Notes: a model not told the origin generated them from the letters alone. 64,000 nucleotides of DNA from Pirellulales bacterium (GCA_028289405.1 JANQPP010000036.1:28297-92296), one strand, 5' to 3'. Shown: positions 6,123-42,858, numbered from the stretch's first letter. Numbers and translations: made by a program.

Positions 6123-6152
6123 GCCGGTGGCGTGTCCGACAGGAAGCGAGAG

Positions 6153-6791: not shown

Positions 6792-7016
6792 TTTCGTGAA
6801 TCCTCTTGCGGTTTACATAAGGCTTCGGTCCGAAACGCCTCCTTAAGTGTTGGAGCAAATTAACACAGCCCTCAAGAACGGTCAAATTGAGGAATTGCAT
6901 CGCCCAATCGGCAGTAGCCGGAGTGGCCGCGAATGACTTTCGGAGTGTCGAGTACTGGACGCTATATTTGCAAAACCGATTAAGAACGGCCCCAGTGAAT
7001 CACGCTCCACGCGGAA

Positions 7017-7820
7017 TTGGCAAAGATTATGAATTGGCTCCAAACCGTGATTCTCGGCATGGTGCAAGGCATCACTGAATTCCTGCCCATCAGTTCCTCC
7101 GGCCATCTGGTCGTCACGGAAGCGCTGTTTGACCAGGCGGGCCAGCCTTTGGCGGATCTGCTGGAGGTCGAAATCGCCCTTCACGCCGGCACGTTAGTCA
7201 CGATTTTGATCTACTTTCGACGGCAAATCGTGCGGCTGCTGGGGCAAGACCGACGTGCCGTGGGCTTGCTTATCGTCGGCACGATGCCCGCCGTGGTATT
7301 TGGCCTCACGGCGAAGGAGTTTGCCGAAGCGTGGCTGGAAAGTGCCTGGCTGGCCGGAGGCATGCTGCCGATGACGGGGGGCATGCTCTTGTGGTCCGCG
7401 CGCCACGAAGACACGACAGGGAAGTACAATGAGTTGAGCTATGCTGCGGCCTTGGTCGTCGGTTGTTTCCAAGCGTTCGCCATTCTGCCCGGTATTTCCC
7501 GCAGCGGATCCACGATCGTGGGGGGCTTGGCGATGGGCCTCTCTCGTCGGGACGCGGCGACGTTCTCCTTCTTGTTGGCCATCCCGGCCATTGGCGGCGC
7601 GTGCTTGCTGGAAGTCCTGGACATCTTGCAGGAAGGAGCCAGTTCCACGCCCATGCCCATGTTGGTCGCCGGGGCCGTGACGGCCTGCCTGACCGGGTTC
7701 GTCGCCTTGTACTGGCTCTTGAGTTGGCTACTCAATGGACGGCTTCACCATTTCGCCTATTGGTGTTTCGGGCTTGGGGCGTGCGTTCTGATATGGCAAG
7801 CTGTCAGGTTGGTTTCGTAG
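7017..7820 (+). CDS. uppP: Undecaprenyl-diphosphate phosphatase
   Basis: N-terminal signature GMVQGITEFLPISSSGHL and PGISRSGSTI. Multi-TM, 267 aa. Start could be ATG 7029. Confidence 0.9.
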   Translation: MAKIMNWLQTVILGMVQGITEFLPISSSGHLVVTEALFDQAGQPLADLLEVEIALHAGTLVTILIYFRRQIVRLLGQDRRAVGLLIVGTMPAVVFGLTAKEFAEAWLESAWLAGGMLPMTGGMLLWSARHEDTTGKYNELSYAAALVVGCFQAFAILPGISRSGSTIVGGLAMGLSRRDAATFSFLLAIPAIGGACLLEVLDILQEGASSTPMPMLVAGAVTACLTGFVALYWLLSWLLNGRLHHFAYWCFGLGACVLIWQAVRLVS

Positions 7821-8032
7821 TTGCCAGCCACCGCGATGCCGCAGCGATCTTGCCGCCGCAAACTCCACCACTTTTGCATAGAAATTGTGTTTTAGGCCGG
7901 CGCGACACGCGAGGTGGGGATGCGGGTCCTCGCCAAGCCGGACTCGCGCGGTACAATCGGTCGCAATTTGCCGAGCGGTGGGACCACCGCTCCGCATGCC
8001 CGCCTCCTTGTTTGATCACGAAAGCAAGAGCC

Positions 8033-9325
8033 ATGGAAACATCCGGCGTCACTCGGCCTGCCTCCGAACGGATTGTCTCGCTTGACGCTCTACGCGGCTT
8101 CGACATGTTCTGGATCATCGGAGCCGATGCGTTAGTCAACGCGCTCCATCAGCTCAAGAGCTTGTCCGACGTGCCGGCCATCCAATTCGCGGCGCGGCAC
8201 TTGGAACACGTGGAATGGGAAGGCATGGTCTTTTACGACCTGATCTTTCCGTTGTTCGTGTTCATGAGTGGTGTCTCCATTCCACTCGCCTTGGGGAAGC
8301 GTTTGCAGCGCGGAGATTCCCTGGCCAAAGTCCACGGGCATGTATTTCGCCGGGCCCTCGTGCTCTATCTGTTGGGCGTTTTTTATTACGGCGGACTGGC
8401 GAATTACGCGGAAGATATCCGTTGGGTAGGCGTGCTGCAGCGGATTGCCTTGTGTTATCTCGGTGCCAGTTTGATCTATCTCCACTTTCGAGCGTGGGGG
8501 CAGGCCGTTTGGACGGTATTGCTGCTGGCCGGATATTGGGCCGCCATGCGTTTCGTCCCGTTTCCCGCTTATGAAAGTGAGGAAACCCTCACGGGTGTAT
8601 TGACGCCGATCAATAATCTGGCCGCACACGTCGACCGCGTGGCGCTGCCGGGCCGTGCCTGGTTCACCGAGTTGGGCGGCTGGGATCCGGAGGGGATTCT
8701 GAGCACGTTTCCAGCGATCACCTCTTGCGTGCTCGGCGTCTTGGCCGGGCAATTACTCCTACGGGAAAGCATGACGCCCGCGAAGAAAGTGGCCGTCTAC
8801 CTGTTTGCCGGGATTCTGCTTGTCGTGTCCGGATACGCTTGGGCCGGAGAATTCAACGAGATGGCAATGCCCGCGACAGAGGCGAACTCAACCGAGGAAA
8901 CAGCTCCAGAGGGGGGTACAGCGGCGGAAGGCCAAGCGGAAGCGGGAAACGCCGAGGCGGAAGGTGTCGCGGCCCAGCCTCCCAAATGGCAGTTCCCCAT
9001 CATCAAAAACATCTGGACCTCGTCGTATGTGCTCGTGGCCGGCGGCTACAGCCTGGTTTTGTTGGGACTGTTTTACCTGGTCGTCGACATTTGGAAATTT
9101 CGGGCGTGGGCCTTGCCGTTCATCGTCATCGGCGTGAACCCTATTTTTATCTACATGTGTGATCAGCTCGTCCGCTGGGATACCATGGCCGAACGCCTCG
9201 CCGGCGGGCACATCGCCGACGCGCTGGGGGAGTACACCGGCATCGTGCAACTCGTGATCCGCCTCGGTCTAGAGATCGCCGTCTTGTGGTGGATGTACCG
9301 CAAGCGAATCTTTATTCGCGTGTGA
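8033..9325 (+). CDS. Multi-pass membrane acyltransferase-like protein (DUF5009 / heparan-alpha-glucosaminide N-acetyltransferase-like)
   Basis: RIVSLDALRGFDMFWIIG N-terminal motif and about 10 predicted TM segments. The track ORF (7463..) has an Arg/Gly-rich non-coding-looking extension. ATG 8033 (METSGV...) is in the same frame. Confidence 0.65.
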   Translation: METSGVTRPASERIVSLDALRGFDMFWIIGADALVNALHQLKSLSDVPAIQFAARHLEHVEWEGMVFYDLIFPLFVFMSGVSIPLALGKRLQRGDSLAKVHGHVFRRALVLYLLGVFYYGGLANYAEDIRWVGVLQRIALCYLGASLIYLHFRAWGQAVWTVLLLAGYWAAMRFVPFPAYESEETLTGVLTPINNLAAHVDRVALPGRAWFTELGGWDPEGILSTFPAITSCVLGVLAGQLLLRESMTPAKKVAVYLFAGILLVVSGYAWAGEFNEMAMPATEANSTEETAPEGGTAAEGQAEAGNAEAEGVAAQPPKWQFPIIKNIWTSSYVLVAGGYSLVLLGLFYLVVDIWKFRAWALPFIVIGVNPIFIYMCDQLVRWDTMAERLAGGHIADALGEYTGIVQLVIRLGLEIAVLWWMYRKRIFIRV

Positions 9326-10519: not shown

Positions 10520-11131
10520 CTAGGTTTGGATGATGAATTGCGTGTCGAATACTTCGAGGCGTTCGGCTAGCCCTTTTTCTTGCGCGAATTCTTGGACGGC
10601 TTGCTCCACGGGGTGATGGTCTTTTCCCTCGGCGGAATATCCCCAGGTGTAGTCATCTCCGGTGATGAAGCCGCCCGGCTTCACTTTTTGTAACGAGAGC
10701 TGTAAATCCTTCATCACGTATTCGTAGTAGTGGTTTCCATCGACGTAGATCCAGTCGAAATAATCGTCTGGGAATTCGTCTAGGACCTGATCCGAGAAGC
10801 CCCGGTGGAAGGTGACGTTGTTCCTGTCCGCGAACTTGCGCTTCACGGATTCGTAAATATCATCCATGTCTTTCTGCTCCTTGGCGACCGTCCCGCCGAA
10901 CATCCGTTCCGGGAATTCGCCTTGAAATTGCCAAGGATCAATCAGGTGCAACTCCTTGGGAGCAGCAACCTCAAGGATTTTGACGCTGAATTCACCTTTC
11001 CACACGCCGATTTCCGCGCCGATCGAAGATTTGGGAAGCCGTTTCAGCAGCTTCATTCGAGGATCTCGATCCGGAAGCACGGTCCGCGCGATTTTTCCCA
11101 GCACCTTTTGGGCGACATTTTTTTGGTTCAT
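10520..11131 (-). CDS. Class I SAM-dependent methyltransferase (Methyltransf_24-like)
   Basis: 203 aa. GAEIGVWKGEFS glycine-rich loop, DWIYVDGNHYYEYV and PGGFITGDDY. Confidence 0.75.
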   Translation of the reverse strand: MNQKNVAQKVLGKIARTVLPDRDPRMKLLKRLPKSSIGAEIGVWKGEFSVKILEVAAPKELHLIDPWQFQGEFPERMFGGTVAKEQKDMDDIYESVKRKFADRNNVTFHRGFSDQVLDEFPDDYFDWIYVDGNHYYEYVMKDLQLSLQKVKPGGFITGDDYTWGYSAEGKDHHPVEQAVQEFAQEKGLAERLEVFDTQFIIQT

Positions 11132-11207
11132 GGCTCACAATTCCTGCGTTTAAGCATGGTCTCGAACGTCGATCGTTTTTTATTGCCAACGATCATTGCG
11201 ATCTGAC

Positions 11208-13043: not shown

Positions 13044-13844
13044 ATGCCCATGCCTCCCACTTCCGATGAGCTATTTTCCGTTTCGGATCAAGTGGTGCTC
13101 GTCTCTGGCGGCAGCCGGGGCATCGGGCAGGCCATCGTGGCCGGATTTGCCGCGCGGGGCGCGACCGTGATTTTCACGGGCCGACAATCGGAAACCGTGC
13201 AAGCCGCCGCCGACCAGTGGCGCGAAGAGGGTTGGCGGATCACTCCTCGGGTATGCGACGTCGCGAAGCCGGAGGAGATTTCCCGGCTCGTTCGCGACGT
13301 TCACGAAGAATTCGGGCGAATCGATACGCTGATTAACGTGGCGGGCGTGAATCGTCGCAAGCCCGCGCTGGACATCACGGACGAAGATTATGATTTTGTG
13401 CTCGACGTCAATTTGAAGGGAGCCTTTCTGCTGTCCCGGGAAGTAGGCCGCCTGATGTGCCAACGGAAAGCTGGCTGCCAAATCAACATCGCCTCGCTGA
13501 ATACCGACCGTCCACTCAAGAATGTCGCCCCCTATGCCATGAGCAAGGCGGCGCTGGGACACATGACGCGGGGTTTGGCCTTGGAGTGGGGGCCGCACGG
13601 CGTGCGGGTCAACGCGATCGCGCCCGGCTTCATTTTGACCGATTTGACACGCGGGCTCTGGTCGGATCCCATCATGCGGGATTGGGGGCAGCGGAATACC
13701 CCGCTAGGCCGCCTGGGCGAGCCGCGTGACTTGGCCGGTGCCGCGCTCTTTTTGGCTTCTCCCGCCGCTGCCTTCATGACGGGACAGATCATGTACGTGG
13801 ATGGCGGTTTCACCGCGGGTTGGAATTGGCCGATTCCCGAGTGA
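13044..13844 (+). CDS. Short-chain dehydrogenase/reductase (gluconate-5-dehydrogenase-like)
   Basis: VSGGSRGIGQAI cofactor loop, NVAG, catalytic YAMSKAA and PGFILT. Confidence 0.85.
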   Translation: MPMPPTSDELFSVSDQVVLVSGGSRGIGQAIVAGFAARGATVIFTGRQSETVQAAADQWREEGWRITPRVCDVAKPEEISRLVRDVHEEFGRIDTLINVAGVNRRKPALDITDEDYDFVLDVNLKGAFLLSREVGRLMCQRKAGCQINIASLNTDRPLKNVAPYAMSKAALGHMTRGLALEWGPHGVRVNAIAPGFILTDLTRGLWSDPIMRDWGQRNTPLGRLGEPRDLAGAALFLASPAAAFMTGQIMYVDGGFTAGWNWPIPE

Positions 13845-29533: not shown

Positions 29534-30853
29534 TTGCCAATAACGATTGCCGCTGAATTGTCCGTGACACCAACCACTGCCCGAGAGGAAGAAGAAACAT
29601 CGGAAGCCCGTAACCTATGGGCCATGGCGGCCCAACTCGTCATTTTCCGGTTGGGTTGGATCTTCAAGATTGAAAGCATCGTCATTCCGGCATTCCTCGA
29701 TGCGATTGCCGGTTCGGCGGCACTGCGCGGCTGGCTGCCCGTGCTGAATCGTCTCTGTCAAAGCGTGCCGCCGGTCTTTTTCGCGTCGAGGCTGAGGGCA
29801 ATTCGGAAAAAGAAATACGTCGTCGTGGCCACAGTCTGCATCGAGGCTTTTTTGTTTCTGCTGCTGGCAGGGCTATGGAGAATCAGCGGACAGCAACCGC
29901 GAGCGTGGTTGCCGATCGTGTTTTTTGGCATCTACGCGCTCTTCTTCATCAGCCACGGAATCTACCAGTTAAGTTGGAATACGTTGCAAGGAGAACTCAT
30001 TCGCCCTCACCGCCGGGGCCGCCTAATGGGGATCTCCGACGTGGTCGGCACCGCGCTGGCCCTCTGTTTCGTGTTCACTTTGCTGGTGGCATGGCTGGAA
30101 GGGCCACACGTTCGTTTTGATCTTCTATTCACGTTTACGGGGATTTGTTTCCTGCTCTCGGCCTTCATGGGAGCGGCCATCAAGGAGCCCGAGGATGAGG
30201 AGGTGGATGATCCGTCGTTGTTGGAGACGGTAGGCGGCTGGCGTACCCCTTTCGCAGATGGCAAGTTTCGTCGCGTGGCGGGCGTGGCAATGTGCTTCAG
30301 CACATTCCAGATGATGCTGCCGCATTTCCAAGCGTATGGGCGGGAACGCCTGGACGTGCCGATTGGAGACTTGGCGAAGTTCGTCGCCGCGCAGATCATC
30401 GGCACGGCCACGCTAAGCTTATTGGCGGGGACCGCCGCTGACCGCCACGGCACGAGGTGGGTGTTGCGGGTACTGATGACGACGGCCACCACGGTCCCTC
30501 TGCTCGCGATGAGTTTCGCTTGGTTGCCACGCGAGATCGCCGGCCGATGGTACGGTGCTCTGTTTATGTTTGTCGGGATCACCCCTATTGGCTTCAAGAT
30601 GCTCCTCAATCACACGCTGGAAATCAGCCCTCTCTCGGAGCATCCGCGATATCTGAGTACCTTGGGCCTGTGCCTGCTCTTGCCGCTTGTTTTTTCTCCT
30701 TTGTATGGCTGGGCAATCGACGAATGGGGCTATTCATTTGGATTCATGGTTGGTGCTTTCTGTGTCGGCTGCGGCGCCGTGCAAACGATTTTCCTCGCGG
30801 AGCCCCGGAGAGACGCGGCGCCGCCATCCGTCTTTTCGGACCTGTCTTCCTAA
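29534..30853 (+). CDS. MFS-type transporter
   Basis: About 12 TM segments in two halves. 29534 is the longest TTG extension; ATG 29624 (MAAQLVIF...) is an equally plausible start. Confidence 0.65.
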   Translation: MPITIAAELSVTPTTAREEEETSEARNLWAMAAQLVIFRLGWIFKIESIVIPAFLDAIAGSAALRGWLPVLNRLCQSVPPVFFASRLRAIRKKKYVVVATVCIEAFLFLLLAGLWRISGQQPRAWLPIVFFGIYALFFISHGIYQLSWNTLQGELIRPHRRGRLMGISDVVGTALALCFVFTLLVAWLEGPHVRFDLLFTFTGICFLLSAFMGAAIKEPEDEEVDDPSLLETVGGWRTPFADGKFRRVAGVAMCFSTFQMMLPHFQAYGRERLDVPIGDLAKFVAAQIIGTATLSLLAGTAADRHGTRWVLRVLMTTATTVPLLAMSFAWLPREIAGRWYGALFMFVGITPIGFKMLLNHTLEISPLSEHPRYLSTLGLCLLLPLVFSPLYGWAIDEWGYSFGFMVGAFCVGCGAVQTIFLAEPRRDAAPPSVFSDLSS

Positions 30854-31016
30854 TCCATTCGGTGCCAATTGGTCCGTCACCTCCCGCGGCAACCTCACGA
30901 AATTCTCATACTCTCGCCGATTTCCAATGCAGGTTCGGTATGGCATGATACGCGGCAACTCCGTGCGCTTTCCCGGAGATACTCGCCGCGCCCATATATT
31001 GAGCTTGCATCATCGC

Positions 31017-32345
31017 ATGAGTGCTTCTCTTCTTCGCCGCTGGCAAACGATTACAGCCTCCACGCTTTTCGTGGGCTATGCCGGTTACTATATCTGCCGC
31101 TCCAACTATTCCGTGTCGCTCCCGTTGCTCAAGGATGAGTTTTTAGGGAGTGGCCTGGGCAAGGAAGAGTTTGGTTCGATTGCGACGGCAGGCGTTTTGG
31201 CCTACGCCTTCGGCAAGGTCGTCAATGGATTGTTGGTCGATTACCTGGGCGGACGTCGATTTTTTATTTTTGGCATGCTGGCCTCCGTGGCTTGCACGGT
31301 CTGGTTTGGCTTAGCGAGCGGGTTCACCTTGTTTGCTTTGGCCTGGGTAGCCAACCGTTTCGTGCAATCCATGGGGTGGGTGGCGCTGGTGAAAACTTCT
31401 TCCCGTTGGTTTCCCGCGAGACGCCATGCATCGATTTTGGGCGTCTTGTCGATGAGTTACCTGTTGGGGGATGCATTCGCGCGTTTCTATTTAGGGTTTT
31501 TCTTACAAGCAGGATTCGGTTGGCGTGGGGTGTTTTTCGTGAGTGCGGCCACGCTGGGAGGGATCGCGCTGGCCAGCCGCTTCTTGCTCAAAACTTCCCC
31601 TCAGGACGTGGGCGCGGAGGAACCTTCCACTAGTGTGATCAACGTCTTCGGTGAGAAGGGGGAGCAAGTCAAGCCCGCCAATTTGCGGGAGTTGCTCATG
31701 CCCCTATTAACGAGTTTTGCTTTTTGGACGGTCTGCGTGATGAACTTTGGACTGACGCTTCTCCGCGAGACGTTCAATACCTGGAATCCGCTGTTCTTGG
31801 CCGAAGCCGCCGGTGCCACCAACGAGCAAGCCGCCTTTTATAGCGGCTTTTTCCCTTTGGTGGGGGCCGTATCCGCGCTGTTGGCTGGGTATCTTTCCGA
31901 TTCTTGGGGCGCGCGGCATGGCCGAGTGGTCGTTCCCTCGCTGCTGATGCTCATCGTGACCACCTACTGGCTTAGCCGGGCGGATGTCTCCGGAAGCCCT
32001 GCCTACGCGGCATTTCTCACCAGCCTGGTCTCTTTCTTCCTCATCGCTCCGTACACCTTCCTTTCCGGAGTGATCGCGTTGGATTTAGGCGGAAAACTGG
32101 GAAGTTCCACGACCGCCGGCCTGATCGATTCCGCCGGTTACCTGGGTGGCGCGCTCGCCGGTTGGGGGATCGCCAAAATTGTCGAGGACTATGGTTGGAG
32201 CCAGGGCTTTCAAACGCTGATGATTACCGCCGTGATTACCACCGTGGTGGCCATCGCTTACTGGATTCACCAAGAGAAGATGCACCGACGTTTGGCTGGG
32301 TCGTTGGCCTCGCCGGCGAATCCGATGGAGCCAAAAGGCGTGTGA
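31017..32345 (+). CDS. MFS organophosphate:phosphate antiporter family transporter (GlpT/UhpC-like)
   Basis: FVGYAGYYICRSNYSVSLPLL, GKVVNGLLVDYLGGRR and SSRWFP match OPA-family signatures. Start trimmed to ATG 31017. Confidence 0.8.
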   Translation: MSASLLRRWQTITASTLFVGYAGYYICRSNYSVSLPLLKDEFLGSGLGKEEFGSIATAGVLAYAFGKVVNGLLVDYLGGRRFFIFGMLASVACTVWFGLASGFTLFALAWVANRFVQSMGWVALVKTSSRWFPARRHASILGVLSMSYLLGDAFARFYLGFFLQAGFGWRGVFFVSAATLGGIALASRFLLKTSPQDVGAEEPSTSVINVFGEKGEQVKPANLRELLMPLLTSFAFWTVCVMNFGLTLLRETFNTWNPLFLAEAAGATNEQAAFYSGFFPLVGAVSALLAGYLSDSWGARHGRVVVPSLLMLIVTTYWLSRADVSGSPAYAAFLTSLVSFFLIAPYTFLSGVIALDLGGKLGSSTTAGLIDSAGYLGGALAGWGIAKIVEDYGWSQGFQTLMITAVITTVVAIAYWIHQEKMHRRLAGSLASPANPMEPKGV

Positions 32346-33451: not shown

Positions 33452-34489
33452 TCAACTGGCAAGAGGCCGATAGGAAGGCTTGCCCGCGATGGCGGTCCGC
33501 AGGCTGAGCAGCAAGGAACCGCAGGTGATGTACAGCGTGCAGAGATCCTCACCGCCGAAGGTGCAGTTGGTAATCGTATCCTCCGGCGTCTCGCGAAACG
33601 CGAGCAGTTCACCCCGGGGAGACACGACGTGGATACCTGGTCGTGTCTCCAAGGTCTCGCTCGTGTCGCGAAGGCGGTGCAAGCCGGCGGCGATGTAGAG
33701 ATTTCCCTCCTCGTCAATGCACATACCATCGCCGCTACGTCCCGGGTAAAAATCGATAAGCACACGGCCATTGCGGACGCTGCCATCGGCTTGCAGGTCA
33801 TAGGCGCGAATGTCGCGATGGCGATTCGCGTCTGGGTGGGCCTCCACCAGATAAAAAGTGGTTTCATCCGGGGAAAGCACCAAGCCGTTAGGCATGTGCA
33901 CTTCCGGCTCCGCCAGAATTTGATGCAGCGAACCATCGGGGTCCCAACGATAGACGGCGTTGGCGTTCGTGGTCTCCGGCCCCTTAAATCCGGAAGGCCG
34001 TGAAGAGAAATAGATCCGTCCTTGCTGGTCCCAACAGAGATCGTTCGGAGGCGCGAGCGGCAAGCCGGCATAACGGTTGGCAAGAACCGTGGTTTCGTCG
34101 GTCTCCACATCGATCCGCACCAATCGGCCCGACTCCCCTTCACAAGCTAGCAGCCGTCCCTCGCGGTCGAACATCAAGCCGTTGGCTTCTTGGGAGTCTT
34201 CGCGAAACGTTTCCAAGGATCGCGACTCCGGATGCCAACGGAGGATTTTGGACTGCGGAATATTCGTGAAATAGACTCGCCCTTGCCGGTCAACGGCGGG
34301 GCCTTCGGTGAAGGCGGGCTCGCTCTCCAGGCGAGTTTCGACCTGAACCGGGCCCAGATAGTCGTCGGTCCGCAGGTTTTCGTAACGGCCCCGACGTTCT
34401 TCCGCCGCCGCTGACATGGTGAATCCTCCACTCACGGCGACCACGAGGGATTGGCGCAGAAAGTCCCGTCGATGCCACGTATTTTGCAT
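33452..34489 (-). CDS. SMP-30/gluconolactonase/LRE-family beta-propeller with a twin-arginine signal
   Basis: MQNTWHRRDFLRQSL...AAAEE TAT signal. Repeated propeller blades (EGPAVD, NGLMFD, PNDL, PNGLVL, DGMCID). Start trimmed to ATG 34489. Confidence 0.8.
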   Translation of the reverse strand: MQNTWHRRDFLRQSLVVAVSGGFTMSAAAEERRGRYENLRTDDYLGPVQVETRLESEPAFTEGPAVDRQGRVYFTNIPQSKILRWHPESRSLETFREDSQEANGLMFDREGRLLACEGESGRLVRIDVETDETTVLANRYAGLPLAPPNDLCWDQQGRIYFSSRPSGFKGPETTNANAVYRWDPDGSLHQILAEPEVHMPNGLVLSPDETTFYLVEAHPDANRHRDIRAYDLQADGSVRNGRVLIDFYPGRSGDGMCIDEEGNLYIAAGLHRLRDTSETLETRPGIHVVSPRGELLAFRETPEDTITNCTFGGEDLCTLYITCGSLLLSLRTAIAGKPSYRPLAS

Positions 34490-34620
34490 GGATGTATTCC
34501 AACCTTGTTCGATGTCCCACACGGGGATAAGACGAGCGGATTATCCCCCAATTGGCCGCGCGACTCAAGCAAAGGTCTTGCGAATTTGAGTGCCTGTCCG
34601 CGGTGGGGAAATGAAATCGG

Positions 34621-35037
34621 CTAACGGCCTTCGGCCATGCCCAAATATCCCGCGCTGGACTGAAAATATCGCTGGCGGCGGGCAGTGCGCGAATCGTTCG
34701 ATTCCTGCTGGCGTTGTTGCAAGTCGGCCAAGTTGGCCTGACAGTAGCGGCAGCCGATCGTTTGCAGGTGAAATTCGAGATACTCCGCTTCTTCGTCTGG
34801 CAGTACCCCGAGCAAGTAACTGCCCAGCGTTTCACGGTTAGGGCAGCTCACGCGATGCCGCCGCCAGATGGAGCCCAAGGTATGCACGCCCGCGTCGCGG
34901 CGGGCAGCCAATTCCGCCAACCGGTGTAGCGTGTCGGGATCTTCCCGCAACACGGCTTCCAATTGAGACATCGCGCCCACCGGGAGCATCTCATCGAGAT
35001 AGGCTTCCAGTTCGGCGTCGCTGAAGTTTTTGCTCAT
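34621..35037 (-). CDS. Putative cytoplasmic anti-sigma factor (Cys/His zinc-finger type)
   Basis: 138 aa immediately downstream of the ECF sigma gene (34-nt gap). FHLQTIGCRYCQ resembles the zf-HC2 motif, although with H-x5-C-x2-C spacing. No TM segment. Confidence 0.5.
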   Translation of the reverse strand: MSKNFSDAELEAYLDEMLPVGAMSQLEAVLREDPDTLHRLAELAARRDAGVHTLGSIWRRHRVSCPNRETLGSYLLGVLPDEEAEYLEFHLQTIGCRYCQANLADLQQRQQESNDSRTARRQRYFQSSAGYLGMAEGR

Positions 35038-35071
35038 GGCGGGAAGTGGATAGTTTATGAATTACACGGCA

Positions 35072-35713
35072 TTAATTTTCATACAGTTCGGGGAAGATTT
35101 CGCCGGAAAGCCCCTGCTTGCGAATCCGCGAGCGGAGGCGGGCGATAAAATCGAACTTGAAATTCGCCACCTGTTGTTCCGTGATCTCCAGGAATTCGGC
35201 GGTGTCCTTGTTGGCCCAACCTCCCACGAACAGCAGTTCGATGCATTTGAGTTTGGTCCAATCCCCTTTGTTTCGCCAATGCTCTACCAACTCTTCCAGG
35301 CAAGCCGTGAGTGCCTGGTCTTCCATCCGCCGCCGCTCTTGGCTGCGATGGATGCTGCTGGCATGTCGGGCCGAGCCGGGCACTTCCCAGGAGCCGGTAT
35401 TGCTCGTTTCGGCATTCAAGCTGATCGCCGGACGGCGTCCTTCGCGGCGCATATGGTCGGTCAGTTTGTGGGCGGCGATGGAAAACAGATAGCTTTCCAA
35501 GGGGCGGGCCGCATCATAATTTGGCAGGCTTACCACGAAGCCAATGAAGGCTTCCTGGACAACATCCTCACTCGTGGAGCGGTTGCCGATTCGGCTTTCC
35601 ACGAACGCCAACAGCCGGCCTTCGAATCGGGAGATGAATTCGTCCCACGCCGGAGTTTCGCCCGCGCGAATCCGGGCCACCAGCAGTTGGTCGGCGTTCG
35701 AAGTAGAGGGCAT
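35072..35713 (-). CDS. ECF-type RNA polymerase sigma factor
   Basis: Sigma-70 region 2 (FEGRLLAFVESRIGNRSTSEDVVQEAFIGF...YLFSIAAHKLTDHMRR) and region 4 (DTAEFLEITEQQVANFKF). Confidence 0.85.
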   Translation of the reverse strand: MPSTSNADQLLVARIRAGETPAWDEFISRFEGRLLAFVESRIGNRSTSEDVVQEAFIGFVVSLPNYDAARPLESYLFSIAAHKLTDHMRREGRRPAISLNAETSNTGSWEVPGSARHASSIHRSQERRRMEDQALTACLEELVEHWRNKGDWTKLKCIELLFVGGWANKDTAEFLEITEQQVANFKFDFIARLRSRIRKQGLSGEIFPELYEN

Positions 35714-35793
35714 GGGTAATTATGGAGTGTGTCGAACCGCTTTCGCGTAACTCGGGCGAACGGAAGCCGGGCCTGGAGGAAACGCGGCGTAGC

Positions 35794-36897
35794 CTAAAAC
35801 CAATCCGCCAAGTTATCTAGGATCATCAACCCAGCGAATCCCAAGGCCAGTATCATTCCCGTGCCGAGAAATCGCAACCGCCACGTGTAATACCCGCCCG
35901 TGGCGGTGTCGAGTTTCAAATACGCGAAAACCACGCTCAGAATAGAGAGCACCATACCGGCGCCCCAGCCAGTGAGCGTGATGCGGCGTTTAGCCACGGC
36001 TTGCTGCCAAAGCTGCTCCATTTCCCTCCGCGCGGCGGAATCGAATTTGAGTCGCGTCCATCCGAGGAACACTTCCATCTTTTTAGACGGAACACCGACC
36101 TCGATCTCGCGGCGTTCCGCATAGTGTTCCGCATTCTGGAATTGGCGTTCCAGGAATTCCCACGGCAGGCGAATCCCATGGTGGGCATCCGAGACGAGCT
36201 GATTTAAATAGTCGTGCGTACGATTCGCCGCCGCCTGAAGAAGCTTCCGCTGAAGCTCTTGGACGCCCGAAGCGGCTTCGGCGGAGATCGCGATGACGTA
36301 GTCGTCCCCTTCCATGCGGCCGGTATGGTGTGGGCTGGCTTCGTCCAGCCAATCGGGACGTTTTCCCGATGCTTCGATCAACCGCGACTGCATGTCATCT
36401 GAAAGTATCGAAGCGGAAGCAAAGTCCGCCACGATTTCTTGCTGTACGGGCACCGGTTCAGGTTCAGATGCTTCACCCGCTTCCTCAGGGCGCTCACTGC
36501 ATTCTTTTTCGATCACGATTTCGGTCACGGAGTCCGCAACGATGTGTTCGTGCGCTACTTCTTCGAGTTGGATTTCTATGGAATGGACCTCGGGCATGGG
36601 CCGCGCATGCTGTTGGCGAATTTGTGGGAATTTATGATTCACGAACGCGGAGAGAGCGGAGCCGTGTCGGTCGGATTCTTGGACCCTCGTCGCGCGAATG
36701 AACATGACAATTCCTACCAAGGCAACCACGAACAGCCAGCCACCGCCGCCTCGGCATCTTCCGTGCGTAGCGGAAGCCGTATTGTGGCCACAGCGGCGTA
36801 TTGCTCGCACGATTGCCACGAATCCCGTCAAGAAAATGGTTGCCAGTCCGATGAGGACGAACAAACCAACGAATGAAATTCCCGCGTCAACAGCCAT
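35794..36897 (-). CDS. Membrane protein of unknown function (2 N-terminal + 3 C-terminal TM segments, acidic central region)
   Basis: 367-aa ORF whose ATG overlaps the kinase stop (TAATG at 36895-36899). Hydrophobic segments at both ends. I recognise no family. Confidence 0.55.
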   Translation of the reverse strand: MAVDAGISFVGLFVLIGLATIFLTGFVAIVRAIRRCGHNTASATHGRCRGGGGWLFVVALVGIVMFIRATRVQESDRHGSALSAFVNHKFPQIRQQHARPMPEVHSIEIQLEEVAHEHIVADSVTEIVIEKECSERPEEAGEASEPEPVPVQQEIVADFASASILSDDMQSRLIEASGKRPDWLDEASPHHTGRMEGDDYVIAISAEAASGVQELQRKLLQAAANRTHDYLNQLVSDAHHGIRLPWEFLERQFQNAEHYAERREIEVGVPSKKMEVFLGWTRLKFDSAARREMEQLWQQAVAKRRITLTGWGAGMVLSILSVVFAYLKLDTATGGYYTWRLRFLGTGMILALGFAGLMILDNLADWF

Positions 36898-38945
36898 TAT
36901 GCAATCGCCTCCTTCGCGTCGGTGACCACAAATTTTCGGTCAGCAGGATCGATCCACGGACTGCCGATTTGCACGGCGATGGAAATCGTGGCCGCTGCCA
37001 TCAATCCCCAAGGCTGTGGAAAGTGCCAAAACAGGCTCAACAGCCAGGCCCAAAACACGCTCGTGAGGGTGGCCCATACATCCAGGCGGTTTCGCCGCAA
37101 CGGATCAGAGACTTTCCACCAGCGAAGCGCCACGAACAGCAGGCCGAAATAGGTCGCGAACGCGGGCCAGCGAGGCTGGGCATCCATGGAGTAATAAAAC
37201 GGAGACATTTCCCGCAGCGAGGCGACCGAACCCGTCTGCATTTCGTGTGGCAGGTTGACGAAGAAACTTTGTGCCGTGACGTATGCCACCAATCCTACGC
37301 CGAGGCCGACGAACAGGAGCACGAAGCGGCGGAGAATAGCATCACCCCGGCTGCCTTCCCACCACTTGGAGGGAACCAAAATGGCCCAGGCACCGGCGCC
37401 GCTCACGAGCGCCAACCAAAGGTATTCATCCATGGCGAAGGGCCGCCGCCGCATGAGCATCAGCGCGAATGCGGCCACGGCGGACACGATCCCGCTTAAA
37501 ATCAAAGAGCCGACCAGTTCGGTGAAGCGTTGCGTGCGGCCTTTTTTCGGCAACATGGGCCGGCCATAGCGCGGCGCGAGTTTTCGAGCCGCAACTGCGG
37601 GTTTTGGATCAGCTACGGGAGTCGCCGGCGTGGCGACGGCCGCGGGCTGGGGAGGCTCCGGTGCTTCCGCTGGCGGATGGCTTACCGCCGGTTGAACCTT
37701 GGCAACTTGAGCGGTCTTCGCGGCAGGAGTTTCCTCTAGAGATAGCACGATGGCGCGAATGACAAAGTAGATCCCATAGATGAAGAGGATCGGGAAGAAA
37801 AACCACAAGAGTTGTCGATTGATGATCAACGACGCCAGGCAAGCCACCAAGATCGCGACCTTCGCGCCATGGGGCAAATTGGCTTTGGTCCACGCGCCCT
37901 GCAACTGGCCTCCCGCCTCGCGTACGGCCCGCAGAATCGGCTCGTCCGTCGCGACTGGCTTGGCCTCGGGAAACTTCGCCGCGTCCACGGGAGTTTCCAC
38001 TTTCTTGGTGGAAGTGGCCCAAACTTTGGGCTCCACGCGGCCCATTTTTCCCGGAGCGGTTTCGGGCAGCAAATCGAGCAATTCCTGCACCGACTTGACG
38101 CGCTCGCTCGGGTCCTTGGCCAGACATTTGCCGACGATCGTACGAAAGGGCTCCTCTAGGGCGGAGAGATCCGGTTCGGCGGTAAGGTGCTTCATCAAGA
38201 CCTCGCCGACGCTTTCGCCCTCGAACGGGACTCGACCCGTGAGCATCTCGAAGAGGATGATTCCCAGGGCGTAGACATCGATTTCCTTGCCGTACCGCCC
38301 GTTGGCCACCTCTGGTGCCATGTAATGCACCGTGCCTACACTCTCGGTTTGTCCGCTGCGGCGGCTGCACGACACGAACTTCGAAAGCCCGTAATCGCCG
38401 ACTTTAACGATCCCTTCGTCGAAGAAAATATTGCCGGGCTTGAGATCCCGATGCACGATGCCATGGTCATGCAAGCAGGCCACGCCCGCCGCGATACCAT
38501 GCATCCAGGCGACGGCCTCTTCCACGGGCAGGCCCTGGGGATGCTTGTCGAGGACATCCTCCAGCGAGTCGCCGGAGACGTATTCCATGACAACCCAGTT
38601 ATCATTCCGGTCGTCGATCTTGACGTCGTGCAGCGCCAGCAAATGGGGATGTTTCAAGTTCAGACAATGGCTGACTCCCCGCAGTTCGATGTCCAGGTTG
38701 CGGCGGATCAGCTTGAGAGCGACTTCCTTGCCACCATCGCTGGTGGCGTAGTAGACTTCGCCGAAGCCCCCGTGCCCGATCCCCCGCTTGATGGTGTAAC
38801 CGGCCAAGGGACGGGAACCGCTGGCATAGGTGAATTTGGCGTCTCCACCAATGCCGTGAGGTGAGGCGACCGGCTGGGTGGCACGCAAGTTCATGGATTC
38901 GCTCCGGTTGGATTCTTTCGCTTCGGCGGTAACCAGCGCGTGCAT
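36897..38945 (-). CDS. Ser/Thr protein kinase with a Pro-rich linker and a C-terminal polytopic membrane domain
   Basis: GHGGFGEVY, VALK, HRDLKPGN, DYGLS and APE Hanks motifs, followed by about 7 TM segments. ATG 38894 (MNLRATQ, GGAG upstream) is an alternative start. Confidence 0.9.
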   Translation of the reverse strand: MHALVTAEAKESNRSESMNLRATQPVASPHGIGGDAKFTYASGSRPLAGYTIKRGIGHGGFGEVYYATSDGGKEVALKLIRRNLDIELRGVSHCLNLKHPHLLALHDVKIDDRNDNWVVMEYVSGDSLEDVLDKHPQGLPVEEAVAWMHGIAAGVACLHDHGIVHRDLKPGNIFFDEGIVKVGDYGLSKFVSCSRRSGQTESVGTVHYMAPEVANGRYGKEIDVYALGIILFEMLTGRVPFEGESVGEVLMKHLTAEPDLSALEEPFRTIVGKCLAKDPSERVKSVQELLDLLPETAPGKMGRVEPKVWATSTKKVETPVDAAKFPEAKPVATDEPILRAVREAGGQLQGAWTKANLPHGAKVAILVACLASLIINRQLLWFFFPILFIYGIYFVIRAIVLSLEETPAAKTAQVAKVQPAVSHPPAEAPEPPQPAAVATPATPVADPKPAVAARKLAPRYGRPMLPKKGRTQRFTELVGSLILSGIVSAVAAFALMLMRRRPFAMDEYLWLALVSGAGAWAILVPSKWWEGSRGDAILRRFVLLFVGLGVGLVAYVTAQSFFVNLPHEMQTGSVASLREMSPFYYSMDAQPRWPAFATYFGLLFVALRWWKVSDPLRRNRLDVWATLTSVFWAWLLSLFWHFPQPWGLMAAATISIAVQIGSPWIDPADRKFVVTDAKEAIA

Positions 38946-39012
38946 TGTTGACTCATATTCGAATATAGACGGACGGAAAGCCGTGTTCCACGATAGAGAA
39001 CGCTGCCTGCCA

Positions 39013-40440
39013 TCAAATGGGCTCCAAACTGAACGACAAGGCTTCTCCTTGCACCCGGGATTGGTGGGTCAGCTCGGCTGAACCCTCCATCGCCCGCTGA
39101 TCGACTTCCAAGGGAAGTTTGGATCGACAGGCCAAGGTTTCCCCACGGCGAAACAGCACCACATCCTCGGGCCAACTCGGACAAACAATGTGGTCGGCGC
39201 TACGTGGGCCGAGGATGCATGTTTCGGCCATCAGCAAAATCCCATCGACCGACGGTTTGGTCCGATGCCGGCTGACGAAATCGAGCCGGGCGGACGCACT
39301 CAACATATGCGGGCGGCTGAACTTCCACACAACGCCATCTCCCATTTCGATTTGGCTGCCGTCACGCAGCAGGGATGGCCGCTGGATCACCACGCCGTCC
39401 ACGCGCACTTTTCCCAATGGCTGGATCGTATAACCCTCGCCGTCGCGGCGGATGACCGCGTGTTTGCGGGAGACATCCGCGAGCACCGGGATGTCCACGT
39501 CGTTGCCCGGTATCGGCTGGCCAATCAGGATCTCGGAACCTTGACAGACGAGAAAACCGCCTACCGCGTCTACCCACAGCAGGAATCGGGGACCTCGTTG
39601 ACCCGATGGGGCGACCTGGGCGACCGGCGTGGAGCTCATGTTCGTCATGGCCGGACTCCTGGGCTGGCGTGGCGGAGGAGCGGAGCGTCCTGCTTGGATA
39701 CCGACCGCGGACCAGGCGCGGCGGCGGGCATCCAGCGACGGGGCATGTTCGGGCGCCAACTCCAACAGCTTCTCCGCGGCGGACAATACATCGGTCCAGG
39801 ACTCCTGGGCGAGAGCGTTGTGCAGTTTCTCCAGCCATGGCCGGCTTGTCAGCAGGGCTTCACGGCAGTTTTTGCGTTGTTCGGCGAGTCGCTTGGACTC
39901 GGGCAGCAAGGCGCAAGCGGTGGCCAGTTCAATATCCGCTTGGGCGAATTCACCCTGCCGCTGATAGTTTTCCGCGGCGCGCCATCGCTGGGCGGCTTGC
40001 TTCAATGTGCGGGCACGCGGTGAATCGAGCCCTCTTTTTTCGAGCACGCGGAGGCGTGCCAGCGCGGCTTCCGCGTCCGCCGCTTCTAGGCAGCTTTCGG
40101 CTTCCTCGACCGTGCCTTCCAAGAGGGCTTGCCGCAAGGCGGGCAATTCGGTGGCATCGGGCGAGAGAATGGTGGCTTGATCCAAGTCGTGCCAGCCAGC
40201 CCTGGAATCTCCCTGCTCGACCTGTTTCCGGCCTCGTTTGGCCATTTGGCTGGCGACACGGGCGGCAAGTGCCGCTCCTGGGCGGAACCGCCGCAGGTCC
40301 TCTTCGCGGAGGAGTTGTCCCGCCTCGTCGAGGCGTCCGCCTCCCAGCGCGTCCGCCGCTTTTCTCAGTTGGAGCCGCCAAGACTGGAACATGAAACTAC
40401 TCCTGCTCTCCTCGGTCGACGCATCCACGTTACCAATCAT
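39013..40440 (-). CDS. FHA-domain protein with an N-terminal helical-repeat region
   Basis: FHA core: ILIGQPIPGNDVDIPVLADVSRKHAVIRRDGEGYTIQPLGKVRVDGVVIQRPSLLRDGSQIEMG. A second FHA-like half follows. The track start (40479) is a TTG extension. ATG 40440 (GAGGGG upstream) or ATG 40392 (AGGAG upstream) is more likely. Confidence 0.8.
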   Translation of the reverse strand: MIGNVDASTEESRSSFMFQSWRLQLRKAADALGGGRLDEAGQLLREEDLRRFRPGAALAARVASQMAKRGRKQVEQGDSRAGWHDLDQATILSPDATELPALRQALLEGTVEEAESCLEAADAEAALARLRVLEKRGLDSPRARTLKQAAQRWRAAENYQRQGEFAQADIELATACALLPESKRLAEQRKNCREALLTSRPWLEKLHNALAQESWTDVLSAAEKLLELAPEHAPSLDARRRAWSAVGIQAGRSAPPPRQPRSPAMTNMSSTPVAQVAPSGQRGPRFLLWVDAVGGFLVCQGSEILIGQPIPGNDVDIPVLADVSRKHAVIRRDGEGYTIQPLGKVRVDGVVIQRPSLLRDGSQIEMGDGVVWKFSRPHMLSASARLDFVSRHRTKPSVDGILLMAETCILGPRSADHIVCPSWPEDVVLFRRGETLACRSKLPLEVDQRAMEGSAELTHQSRVQGEALSFSLEPI

Positions 40441-40487
40441 CTCATGCCCCTCGCTCTTCGATAAGCACTGTGCCGGCAATTCCGATT

Positions 40488-40536
40488 CATGCGCCGTGGC
40501 CTGCCACGCCTCCTAGATCATGGCAGGCCGCGCATG
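40488..40536 (-). promoter_or_regulatory. Strong intercistronic stem-loop between the coiled-coil gene and the FHA gene
   Basis: CATGCGC(cgt)GGCCTGCCA - 14-nt loop - TGGCAGGCCGCGCATG. 16 bp with a 3-nt bulge. No U-tract on either strand. Confidence 0.5.
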
Positions 40537-40582
40537 TGACACAGTGGTTTCGACTGGGCACTCTCCCCAGCCAACAGTCGCC

Positions 40583-41386
40583 TTAGTGGACTTCCTCGAA
40601 GGAAACCTCGGCAACCGTATTGTCGGTCTGGAAGTAGCTCGTCACTTGATCGACGATGTCCTCGGCGACCGGCTCTTCCAAGGGGATGCCGTCGAACGGT
40701 TCGTAGGTCAGGTCGACCATCCGCTCATCCACTTCCAAGCGGGTCTCCAGGCTGTTGACCAGTTCCTTGATGCGTCCCAAGCGGCTATCGTCGAAGCAGA
40801 ACTTGGACGAAGTTTGCGCCACTTGAATCATGCGGTTCTTGGCGTCCACGTTTTCCAGAGCGACTTGCAGTTCGCGCTGCTTGCCGACCATCTCCTCGAT
40901 CTTCTGGCGCGAATTGTCCAGCTTCCGGCTCCGGGCATCGTAGACCTTCCGCAAGGTGTCCAACCGGGTGTCCTTGGACTTGTGCCGTGACAGCCGCTTG
41001 GCGAGATCCACTTTCACTTGCGTGACCGTGAAGTCCCGGCTGCCATAGCGGTAGACCTTTTGGCCGCTCCGCAGGTCTGCTTGCAGGCGTAGCATTTCAT
41101 TCTTGCTCTTGGCGAGCTGATGCTCCGCCGTTTCGATTTCGGCGGCCAGCCGCTCCAGTTCCACTTCTTCACGCACGATCTCTTGCACGCCCCGCTCGAT
41201 TTCCGGCTGCAAGCCTTCGAGCATCTTCTGGGCGCGGGCAATCTCGAATTCCACGGGCACGCTGCGGCGTACGGAATCCTTGGCCCGGCTGAAGGTCGTG
41301 GAAACATAACTGGCGGCATCACGCCCAAAGAATAGGCTGGCCAAGAGGCCGGCTCCCCCCGCGACGAGAAAAACTTTCTTCAACAT
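40583..41386 (-). CDS. Membrane-anchored coiled-coil protein (PspA/IM30-like architecture)
   Basis: 267 aa. N-terminal TM (VFLVAGGAGLLASLFF), then long heptad-rich Glu/Arg/Leu helices. The PspA-like call is by architecture only. Confidence 0.55.
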   Translation of the reverse strand: MLKKVFLVAGGAGLLASLFFGRDAASYVSTTFSRAKDSVRRSVPVEFEIARAQKMLEGLQPEIERGVQEIVREEVELERLAAEIETAEHQLAKSKNEMLRLQADLRSGQKVYRYGSRDFTVTQVKVDLAKRLSRHKSKDTRLDTLRKVYDARSRKLDNSRQKIEEMVGKQRELQVALENVDAKNRMIQVAQTSSKFCFDDSRLGRIKELVNSLETRLEVDERMVDLTYEPFDGIPLEEPVAEDIVDQVTSYFQTDNTVAEVSFEEVH

Positions 41387-41673
41387 TTTGCACTCCTTAT
41401 CACCTTGCTCGGTCGAAACAACTGGTCTTGGACGACTTTGGACACTACGGATTCAAGAGCCTTTGGGTCATCCTAAGTGCCCCGTTCACAAGAGGATTTC
41501 GCCGCGCTCGACCGAATCTTGGAGTTTCTCGCGGGATTTTTTGGAGACCTCGCTTACGCTTCTAACCCGAAGGAACCGACCTTTCACCGAAGTTTGTTTG
41601 CTTGGCATCGCTAAATTGTTTTGTATAAAAGGCTTGCAGTGATCGAAGTTGCCGATTCCTTGGCTTTTCCCCG

Positions 41674-42858
41674 TTGGAGCGCCCCTTGCCGGACCATGAC
41701 CGCGAAGAACGAGCGATAGCCACGATTCACGAGCAGGGCTTGCCCATGGTGTTGGCCGTCACGGGGGGCGGAAGCGGCCTGATCTCCGCACTGCTGCGAG
41801 TACCTGGTGCTTCCCGCACCGTCCTGGAAGCGATAGTTCCCTATTCACAGGCGTCACTCGTGGACTGGCTGGGCGCTGTTCCCGAAAATTTTTGCTCCGC
41901 TGAGACGGCTCGGGCCATGGCCATGCGGGCATACAGCTCGGCCCGAAATCTTGCAAAGCGCGAACAACAGCATGCAGAGCCGGTATTGGGGCTCGCGTGC
42001 ACCGCCGGCTTGGCAACCACGGTTCCCAAACGGGGCGACCATCGCATCCACTGGGCCTTGCAGGCGAAAGATCGCACGGTGTCCAAGTATTTGCGTTTGG
42101 AGAAGAATCGCCGCTCGCGGCAGGAAGAAGAACATCTCGCCATGCAAATGGGCCTAAACCTGTTGTTGGAGGAGTTGGAATTGCCCACTGGTGAGTCTTT
42201 GACGTTAATAAGCGAAGAGCACATCACGACCGAACGCACCCTGGCCCCCGCCGGCTGGCAACAATTGTTGGCTGGAGAGACGTCGATTTGGCAGGAATGT
42301 GGGCCGCCGGTCACGAATCCGCCGGCGGGCCGCGTGTTGTTTCCCGGCGCGTTCAACCCCTTGCACTCAGGGCATCGCCAGATGGCGGAAACTGCCCGGG
42401 AGATATTGGGCCGTCCCGTGGATTTTGAGATCTCGATCCTGAATGTGGACAAGCCGCCGCTAGATTTCACGGAAATGGCCCATCGCCGCGCGGAGTTCAC
42501 CGACGAAGAGGTGCTATGGTTCACGCGCTGCCCCACCTTCTTGGAAAAGGCTGAACGTTTTCCCGGGGCGACCTTCGTAGTGGGCGCCGACACGATGATC
42601 CGGCTCGCCGATCCGAAATATTACGGTGGAGATCGCCAGCAGGCGGAAGCGGCCTTTCGCGGGTTACGCGAACTTGGTGCGAGGTTTTTGGTTTTTGGAC
42701 GTGTGGAAGCGGACGTCTTCCACAGTCTGTCGGATTTGGACTTGCCCCAGCCGCTCCGTGAACGGTGTCAGGAAGTCCCGGAGTCCGACTTTCGCCTCGA
42801 TATTAGCTCGACGGAGATCCGACAGCGGGATGCGAGTGCTTCCGAGAGGGACGGGTAA
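41674..42858 (+). CDS. Fusion of a CinA-C-like (NMN deamidase family) domain and a cytidylyltransferase-like nucleotidyltransferase (NadD/NMNAT-like) domain
   Basis: N-terminal half: LAVTGGGSGLISALLRVPGASRTVLEAIVPYSQASLVDWLG (CinA_C pattern). C-terminal half: FPGAFNPLHSGHRQM ((H/T)xGH nucleotidyltransferase motif). TTG start at 41674 is uncertain. Confidence 0.65.
   Translation: MERPLPDHDREERAIATIHEQGLPMVLAVTGGGSGLISALLRVPGASRTVLEAIVPYSQASLVDWLGAVPENFCSAETARAMAMRAYSSARNLAKREQQHAEPVLGLACTAGLATTVPKRGDHRIHWALQAKDRTVSKYLRLEKNRRSRQEEEHLAMQMGLNLLLEELELPTGESLTLISEEHITTERTLAPAGWQQLLAGETSIWQECGPPVTNPPAGRVLFPGAFNPLHSGHRQMAETAREILGRPVDFEISILNVDKPPLDFTEMAHRRAEFTDEEVLWFTRCPTFLEKAERFPGATFVVGADTMIRLADPKYYGGDRQQAEAAFRGLRELGARFLVFGRVEADVFHSLSDLDLPQPLRERCQEVPESDFRLDISSTEIRQRDASASERDG

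Follow-up and report, generated by a model that had tools for sequence, protein, structure and literature searches.

We analyzed a 64,000-nucleotide stretch of DNA from a Pirellulales bacterium (GCA_028289405.1 JANQPP010000036.1:28297-92296; this whole stretch is referred to as the window, and positions are counted from its first letter) and report on a cluster of six minus-strand genes at positions 34621-41386. In the direction of reading, the genes encode a coiled-coil protein (CC), a protein with a forkhead-associated (FHA) domain, a Hanks-type Ser/Thr kinase, a membrane protein of 367 residues (MP367), an extracytoplasmic function (ECF) sigma factor, and a small Cys/His protein that is a candidate anti-sigma factor (ASF). 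The cluster recurs in related genomes and most probably belongs to the known kinase-linked planctomycetal ECF sigma factors, with ECF61 as the matching group. By analogy with characterized systems, we propose that it represents a lineage-wide Pirellulales signalling operon, in which the anti-sigma factor would hold the sigma factor and the kinase would relieve this hold by phosphorylation. We give this reading about even confidence.

The conservation of the cluster was assessed in 80 species-level loci retrieved via the sigma factor, each with 10-kb flanks, which were searched with the six window proteins (tblastn) and then with hidden Markov models (HMMs) built from the orthologues. Loci with the kinase, its partner MP367 and/or the anti-sigma candidate beside the sigma gene were termed type A. 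This arrangement is present in 48 of the 80 loci, and gene order and strand are as in the window in every one of the 48, a recurrence that far exceeds chance. The first-pass annotation of the window had linked an FHA protein, a membrane Hanks kinase, an ECF sigma factor and a Cys/His anti-sigma-like protein, and had itself made the preservation of their order in relatives the test of this linkage. The linkage has now been borne out as a conserved cluster. Kinase and MP367 accompany the sigma gene in 37 of 39 assessable loci, and ASF follows downstream of it in 40 of the 43 type A loci that could be assessed. Where at least 7 kb of upstream sequence is available (30 loci), the full set of four upstream genes occurs in 25. 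The neighbors outside the six genes vary among relatives. Apart from the sigma factor, the proteins share no more than 24-71% identity (tblastn), with MP367 at the lower and the kinase domain at the upper end, so that the order has been retained under selection and is not explained by recent shared descent. In three loci related to one another (L005, L007, and L008), kinase, partner, sigma factor and anti-sigma candidate occur alone. We thus distinguish a four-gene core from a two-gene accessory head formed by CC and the FHA protein. Five of the 80 loci fit neither type A nor the second arrangement (type B) described below, one of them being too short to assess.

No fewer than 532 species-representative genomes encode a relative of the sigma factor itself. 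When 5575 candidates were scored, 5290 qualified as homologues (E<=1e-5); among the non-identical matches, the top 120 align over their full length with 62-69% identity. As judged from these comparisons, the protein is unusually conserved for an ECF sigma factor. Over the ~18 kb retrieved, which span at least the cluster and the genes next to it, the window shows no difference from a contig of a metagenome-derived assembly, and its relatives place it in Pirellulales (Planctomycetota). Nearly all named homologues and loci come from Pirellulales, Pirellulaceae, or Planctomycetota metagenome-assembled genomes. The one exception, L062, lies on a contig that is labelled Chromatiales yet holds the full planctomycetal cluster, and it is probably mis-binned. 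The same locus carries two copies of the anti-sigma candidate (10783-11178 and 13285-13680).

All six open reading frames (ORFs) were found in the window as initially called, co-directional, separated by short gaps and, in the case of the kinase stop and the MP367 ATG, sharing a TAATG overlap. The gaps amount to ~190 nt between CC and the FHA gene (with the FHA start discussed below) and to 80 nt between MP367 and the sigma gene. Terminator-like sites are not enriched within the cluster; here, the scan was uninformative, as counts of both sigma-70 promoters and terminators did not exceed the shuffled expectation.

A promoter-like element precedes the cluster on the minus strand (41497-41546), at a distance of ~115 nt from the start codon of CC. 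It consists of an A-tract (CCAAAAAATCC), the hexamer CAAGAT (41521-41516), a 14-nt spacer, and CGAAA (41501-41497), and it is single-copy in the 64-kb window. The same three-part architecture could be aligned in 20 orthologous upstream regions as GGAAAAAnCTT, CCAAGAT, N14, and CGAAT. A strict search for CAAGAW-N14-CGAAW on both strands returned 22 matches in 1.32 Mb, with shuffled sequences giving 0-3, and 16 of the 22 fall within 350 nt upstream of cluster gene starts, 10 of them before CC and 6 before the kinase. The kinase-side matches occur in loci where CC and the FHA gene are absent or separated from the kinase by a larger gap, and one such locus has an extra match before MP367. We take the pair of hexamers to resemble ECF-type promoters, with an AA-rich -35 and a -10 element starting with CG. 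No conserved motif was found directly upstream of the sigma gene, and the gaps within the cluster are short; transcription of the sigma gene from the upstream element is therefore favored.

The sigma gene (35072-35713, minus strand) encodes 213 residues with matches to Sigma70_r2 (E=8e-13) and Sigma70_ECF (E=1e-5). The protein consists of sigma2 and sigma4 only and scores 49.4 bits against the TIGR02937 superfamily model (cutoff 42.9). All PDB profile matches are ECF sigma factors (AlgU, RpoE, SigW) and cover sigma2 only, and the divergent sigma4 is detected only via whole-length ECF models. Region 2.2 reads T-S-E-D-V-V-Q-E and thus presents x-S-E-D where the DxxD (DAED) core-binding motif is expected. 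E49 and D50 are invariant in an alignment of 15 sequences and present in at least 95% of 81 orthologues, and S48 is found in at least 80% of the 81, with Ala in some. Sigma2 and sigma4 are connected by a long linker that contains the near-invariant motif A118-S-S-I-x-R-S-x-E-R127.

The first-pass annotation had likened the locus to ECF43, as part of a broader theme of ECF sigma factors coupled to kinases. The theme is well supported by the literature, and predictions of kinase-linked planctomycetal ECF sigma factors have existed since 2012. The likeness to ECF43 did not hold: ECF43 proteins (EcfP, EcfK) have an uncharged QTTA/STTA motif with a conserved phospho-acceptor Thr, so that negative charge needs phosphorylation, whereas the window protein keeps the acidic E49 and D50, and its gene context matches the description of ECF61. 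Four planctomycetal kinase-linked groups are listed in the supplement of Casas-Pastor et al. 2021, namely ECF59, ECF61, ECF62, and ECF217. The kinase is usually found at -2 and has at least five transmembrane (TM) helices in ECF61, and it is found at +1 in the other three (Casas-Pastor et al. 2021). ECF61 was described from six proteins as having in addition a longer sigma4.1 and a tetratricopeptide repeat (TPR) protein in its context, and no anti-sigma factor, FHA protein, or conserved promoter was reported for it (Casas-Pastor et al. 2021). The group is said there to correspond to ECF61 as first defined by Jogler et al. 2012. Because our sigma factor is planctomycetal, has a long sigma2-sigma4 spacing and a TPR-like neighbor, and is preceded at -2, in the 37 of 39 loci mentioned above, by a kinase with a polytopic C-terminal half of at least five TM segments, it probably represents ECF61, as matched by published descriptions and not by group models. 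Unlike in the published account, a zf-HC2 protein occupies position +1 in 40 of 43 of our loci. Either the account missed this protein, which is soluble and often scores below the Pfam cutoff, or the window sigma factor belongs to a sister group.

The protein in question, ASF (34621-35037, minus strand), has 138 residues and is soluble, with a weak zf-HC2 match (E=0.005), a conserved 60-residue N-terminal extension, and an invariant C-terminal YFQSSAG sequence. The signature C65-x24-H90-x5-C96-x2-C99 is invariant in 41 sequences, and of 16 family members 14 match zf-HC2 (PF13490), with E values down to 7e-6. The family comprises 3603 homologue clusters, many with PF13490 and some labelled "anti-sigma factor RsiW" by JGI. 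An AlphaFold2 (AF2) model of ASF is all-helical, with a predicted local distance difference test score (pLDDT) of 76, and its top structural neighbors are the anti-sigma factors RslA and ChrR, at E values that are not significant (see below). We regard ASF as resembling zinc-binding anti-sigma factors (ZAS-like) and as a good candidate for an anti-sigma factor.

The kinase (36897-38945, minus strand; 682 residues; Pkinase E=2e-50) is composed of a catalytic domain (residues 50-287), a Pro/Ala-rich linker, and a hydrophobic, polytopic membrane half at its C terminus, for which no family was found. All Hanks-kinase motifs are present (GHGGFGEVY, EVALK, VHRDLKPGN, GDYG, and MAPE), and the domain with its activation loop RRSGQTESVGT is near-invariant in 37 orthologues. 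The initial count of about seven C-terminal TM segments stands in part: four are strong in a hydropathy scan, and about four weaker stretches, identified by eye, would bring the total to about 7-8.

MP367 (35794-36897, minus strand; 367 residues) has four clear TM segments by the same scan, not the five counted initially, and many of its orthologues begin 0-16 nt from the kinase stop. Both MP367 and CC had been described as having no recognizable family. For MP367, this is correct insofar as no Pfam or NCBIfam entry matches; the protein nevertheless belongs to a large, uncharacterized family with 1945 representatives at E<=1e-3. It first appeared to be an orphan, as a word-index search gave one distant relative, and the family was revealed by an exhaustive profile search. 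Its conserved C-terminal module (residues ~180-366) contains an alpha/beta domain, TM3, a loop with the sequence YLKLDTAxxGYYxxRLR, and TM4, and is modelled by AF2 with a pLDDT of 75-93 over residues 170-360, mostly 84-93. The best fold matches, KpsE and WzzB, are non-significant (E 0.02-0.2, TM-score ~0.2), and we do not claim that MP367 is a polysaccharide co-polymerase. Conservation within the family is highest in the short loop that joins the final two TM helices (residues 326-342, YLKLDTATGGYYTWRLR). The loop contains two Thr residues and could be a target of the kinase or of the FHA protein.

The FHA gene maps to 39013-40392 on the minus strand and encodes 459 residues. It had been annotated as 39013-40440, and both the gene and its domain were confirmed, with the start now placed differently: ATG 40392 (MFQSWRLQL...) is the likeliest initiation codon because all orthologues begin there (MFQxWR...) and the public gene call likewise has 459 residues, with 40440 and 40479 as alternatives. 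The PF00498 match (E=3e-8; 34.3 bits, cutoff 20.7) passes the gathering score in 6 of 6 orthologues. It is combined with an N-terminal half that is helical, TPR-like and not well conserved, in which TPR matches are sub-threshold only, and with a conserved C-terminal extension, PHxLSxSARL...HRT. The Arg of the G-R motif, which binds phosphate in FHA domains, is replaced by Gln (GQ) both in the window protein and in each of the 34 aligned orthologues of full length, and no S/T-x-N loop is present. The role of phosphothreonine (pThr) reader assigned to the protein in the first-pass annotation is doubtful on these sequence grounds. The FHA genes of L025, L075, and L078 are broken into frame-shifted pieces, as are the kinase genes of L025 and L075 (L025:5379-6843; L075:4239-5829 and 5879-8090; L078:4161-5617); assembly error is more likely here than pseudogenization.

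CC (40583-41386, minus strand; 267 residues) starts with a hydrophobic signal-anchor or signal-peptide-like segment (residues 2-20), which is followed by the coiled coil and a C-terminal ...FDDSxLxRxKELI... motif. Its orthologues are 31-51% identical (35-51% for 11 aligned) and occupy the first position in type A loci. Here, the earlier statement that no family can be recognized was correct: there is no Pfam or NCBIfam entry, and family searches gave only generic coiled-coil noise. The suggested resemblance to PspA was not supported, since PspA_IM30 (PF04012) has no match in the window protein at E<=0.1 or in 12 orthologues at E<=0.01. From the N-terminal signal-anchor and the positive-inside rule, the coiled coil may face the periplasm, that is outward.

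A different arrangement, termed type B, is found in 27 of the 80 loci. These come from Mariniblastus and its relatives and form a single clade nested within the type A sigma tree. In 26 of the 27, a different FHA protein is encoded alone 5' of the sigma gene, and the remaining locus ends at a contig edge. This protein has ~200-400 residues by ORF length and carries a canonical GR...SRRH...NGT sequence, with all three pThr-binding features retained in the type B partner protein c2. The FHA-sigma pair is divergent from tig-clpP-clpP (L010:9214-10642; also e.g. L022, L027, L035, L055, and L074). No equivalent of the motif preceding CC or the kinase was found upstream of the pair. Type B loci do contain seeming copies of the motif, but these lie inside a GspE-like coding gene and were rejected. 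The FHA neighbor of the type B sigma factor again ties it to Ser/Thr-phosphate signalling, independently of type A. In Rhodopirellula baltica, RB1789 is a 243-residue FHA protein whose expression rises upon heat, cold, and salt treatment, and the ECF sigma factor RB1790, mentioned beside it, is induced by high salinity (PMC2754498). As a lead from the literature and not from sequence, the two may represent a type B pair.

Taken together, these findings suggest the following working model, in which we infer all protein-protein and phosphorylation steps, the signal, and the regulon. The core would comprise the polytopic Hanks kinase, its translationally coupled 4-TM partner, the ECF61-type sigma factor, and the soluble ZAS-like anti-sigma factor, usually joined by an accessory head of membrane-anchored CC and a TPR/pseudo-FHA scaffold protein, with the whole operon driven from the conserved promoter-like element. 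Having retained part of the acidic core-binding motif, the sigma factor could probably bind RNA polymerase unaided, and it would be held by the anti-sigma factor at rest. The kinase and its membrane partner may sense a membrane or envelope cue, upon which the kinase would autophosphorylate on its conserved activation loop and phosphorylate the anti-sigma factor (the invariant S127/S128, or S64, are candidates) and/or the sigma linker (S119, S120, S124). Either event could free or activate the sigma factor; the closest precedents are the action of PknB on RshA/SigH and that of PknS on the linker of EcfK. A possible second input, redox or zinc, would come from the Cys/His site of the anti-sigma factor. 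The degenerate FHA protein would most likely serve as a kinase adaptor or substrate and not as a canonical pThr reader, and CC might be an accessory scaffold or part of the sensor. A role in envelope stress or morphogenesis, as put forward in the first-pass annotation, is a conjecture. A bolder version, which we consider doubtful, would place a near-universal Pirellulales sigma factor under two coupled layers of control, the soluble zinc anti-sigma factor and the module of polytopic kinase, 4-TM partner, and pseudo-FHA adaptor, and would make it a core envelope or cell-cycle regulator that was rewired in a derived clade to a canonical FHA protein. If true, it would couple two controls that are regarded as mutually alternative in the present classification of ECF sigma factors.

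Several observations weigh against the proposed operon. Published kinase-linked ECF groups, ECF61 included, are said to lack anti-sigma factors (Casas-Pastor et al. 2021). The zinc spacing of ASF, H-x5-C-x2-C, is two residues longer than the H-x3-C-x2-C of ZAS proteins; the window protein scores 17.3 bits for zf-HC2, with a Pfam cutoff of 22.2; a PDB profile search with the ASF family found no anti-sigma factor; and the top Foldseek matches of the ASF model, RslA (3hug) and ChrR (2q1z), are non-significant, with E values of ~3-7 over 39-50 columns in a search of 350,000 PDB chains. Three type A loci have no anti-sigma candidate nearby, and in the 27 type B loci neither a kinase nor an anti-sigma candidate was found within 10 kb of the sigma gene. 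The sigma factor can therefore be encoded apart from both. In addition, the pThr-binding site of the FHA protein is incomplete, with the S/T-x-NG loop missing and S-x-x-H kept in most orthologues, no PP2C phosphatase is encoded in the cluster, and the sigma gene has no conserved motif directly upstream.

Alternatively, the main switch could be direct activation of the sigma factor by the kinase, in an ECF43-like manner, through phosphorylation of the linker or of S48, which would make up for the absent first Asp of the DxxD motif. The Cys/His protein would then be an unrelated zinc protein or an accessory factor. Direct activation has been proposed for kinase-adjacent ECF groups and demonstrated for EcfP and EcfK, and it is consistent with an uncharged residue at the position of the first Asp, with the presence of S48 in at least 80% of 81 orthologues, with the near-invariant Ser residues in the linker, and with a published ECF61 description that has no anti-sigma factor. 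We nevertheless consider it possible but rather unlikely, because the invariant E49 and D50 mean that the motif is not uncharged as in ECF43, because S48 is replaced by Ala in some orthologues, and because the +1 protein has a family-wide zf-HC2 signature in the classical anti-sigma position. The invariant Cys/His site and the solubility of ASF are shared with RsrA and RshA and could also point to a conventional ZAS pair that, as RsrA/SigR does, responds to zinc or to the oxidation of thiols. In that case, the four genes upstream would be the regulon of the sigma factor or an independent module sharing the operon, and the kinase would not control the sigma factor. Target genes are often found within ECF operons, and the acidic residues retained in region 2.2 and the type B sigma factors without a nearby kinase are in line with such a pair. 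What makes it unlikely is that the kinase-partner-sigma order has been kept across deep Pirellulales diversity, that the promoter-like motif precedes the kinase where CC and the FHA gene are absent, which argues for kinase and sigma factor as a co-transcribed core, and that the type B sigma gene is again joined to an FHA gene.

It could finally be argued that the six genes reflect inherited synteny and are not all functionally coupled, with some of them transcribed separately and serving unrelated processes. The CC-FHA and MP367-sigma gaps could house promoters, a second motif copy precedes the kinase in some loci, and several loci have an extra gene between sigma factor and anti-sigma candidate, with gaps of 700-900 nt. 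Set against this are the identical order and strand in all 48 type A loci, in spite of most proteins being just 25-50% identical, the stop-start overlap of kinase and MP367, and the lack of conservation in the genes flanking the six. Synteny alone thus appears quite improbable to us. We retain the operon of kinase, sigma factor, and anti-sigma candidate as our working model, with the confidence stated at the outset.

The genes around the cluster appear to lie outside the conserved set. On its 3' side, 98 nt away, an SMP-30/gluconolactonase-like protein with a twin-arginine-like N terminus (RRDFLRQS) is encoded on the minus strand (33452-34522); a sigma-70-like promoter match is found at 34568-34540, and synteny of this gene does not extend to relatives. 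The product of a divergent plus-strand gene (41674-42858) is a fusion of two domains, one CinA-like and one cytidylyltransferase/NMNAT-like. This neighbor recurs in only three relatives (L025, L049, and L079) and is thus probably not part of the system. Farther away, at 29534-32345 on the plus strand, are two ORFs for MFS-type transporters with overlapping ends (29534-30853 and 30687-32345). As public gene calls show adjacent genes, the overlap probably reflects over-extended ORF starts.

In the literature searched, we found no experimental study of a planctomycetal kinase-linked ECF sigma factor. Our analysis presents an ECF61-like group as strongly conserved in Pirellulales, where it is a core feature with a fixed six-gene architecture, and adds three uncharacterized families, represented by CC, the TPR/pseudo-FHA protein, and the kinase's 4-TM partner. 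The putative ZAS-like anti-sigma factor, previously unreported, contradicts the rule of thumb that kinase-linked ECF sigma factors do without anti-sigma factors. The locus offers mutable residues and a candidate promoter for studying combined control by Ser/Thr phosphorylation and an anti-sigma factor. Its value is mainly for specialists in signalling, and no general principle is overturned.

We compared the locus to known systems. FHA-kinase modules, in which an FHA protein is encoded beside a membrane Hanks kinase, include Fha1/PpkA of type VI secretion systems and the mycobacterial FhaA/FhaB with PknB. The window module differs from these in that its FHA protein has neither the conserved Arg nor the S/T-x-N loop, and in that no PP2C phosphatase accompanies it. 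With ECF61, the cluster shares its planctomycetal origin, a kinase with at least five TM helices at -2, the long sigma2-sigma4.2 spacing, and a TPR-like protein nearby, to which it adds the conserved ZAS-like protein at +1, the degenerate FHA protein, CC, the membrane protein at -1, and the upstream motif. In ECF43, a membrane Hanks kinase likewise adjoins the ECF sigma gene, and phosphorylation has been located to region 2.2 and/or the sigma2-sigma4 linker in EcfP-PknT of Vibrio parahaemolyticus and EcfK-PknS of Xanthomonas citri. The window sigma factor has a Ser in its region 2.2 motif and a Ser-rich linker. ECF43 proteins, however, have an uncharged motif and no anti-sigma factor, whereas our sigma factor has E-D and a candidate anti-sigma factor, and the window kinase is polytopic, has no recognizable sensor domain, and comes from another taxon.

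The anti-sigma candidate resembles class I ZAS proteins (RsrA, RslA, ChrR; PF13490) in the C...H...C-x2-C arrangement within a helical domain and in the position of its gene directly downstream of an ECF sigma gene, with RslA and ChrR as its best fold neighbors, and it is set apart from them by the two-residue His-Cys insertion, the 60-residue N-terminal extension, the sub-gathering score, and the non-significant fold match. In Mycobacterium tuberculosis, PknB phosphorylates both the ZAS protein RshA, which releases SigH, and the SigH linker, and linker phosphosites are documented for SigH as well as EcfK. PknB is not encoded with sigH-rshA, whereas the window kinase is part of the cluster; the zinc spacing in our candidate is H-x5-C-x2-C, and its phosphorylation is only proposed. 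For a locus that encodes both a kinase and a ZAS-like protein, PknB-RshA-SigH is the nearest mechanistic precedent.

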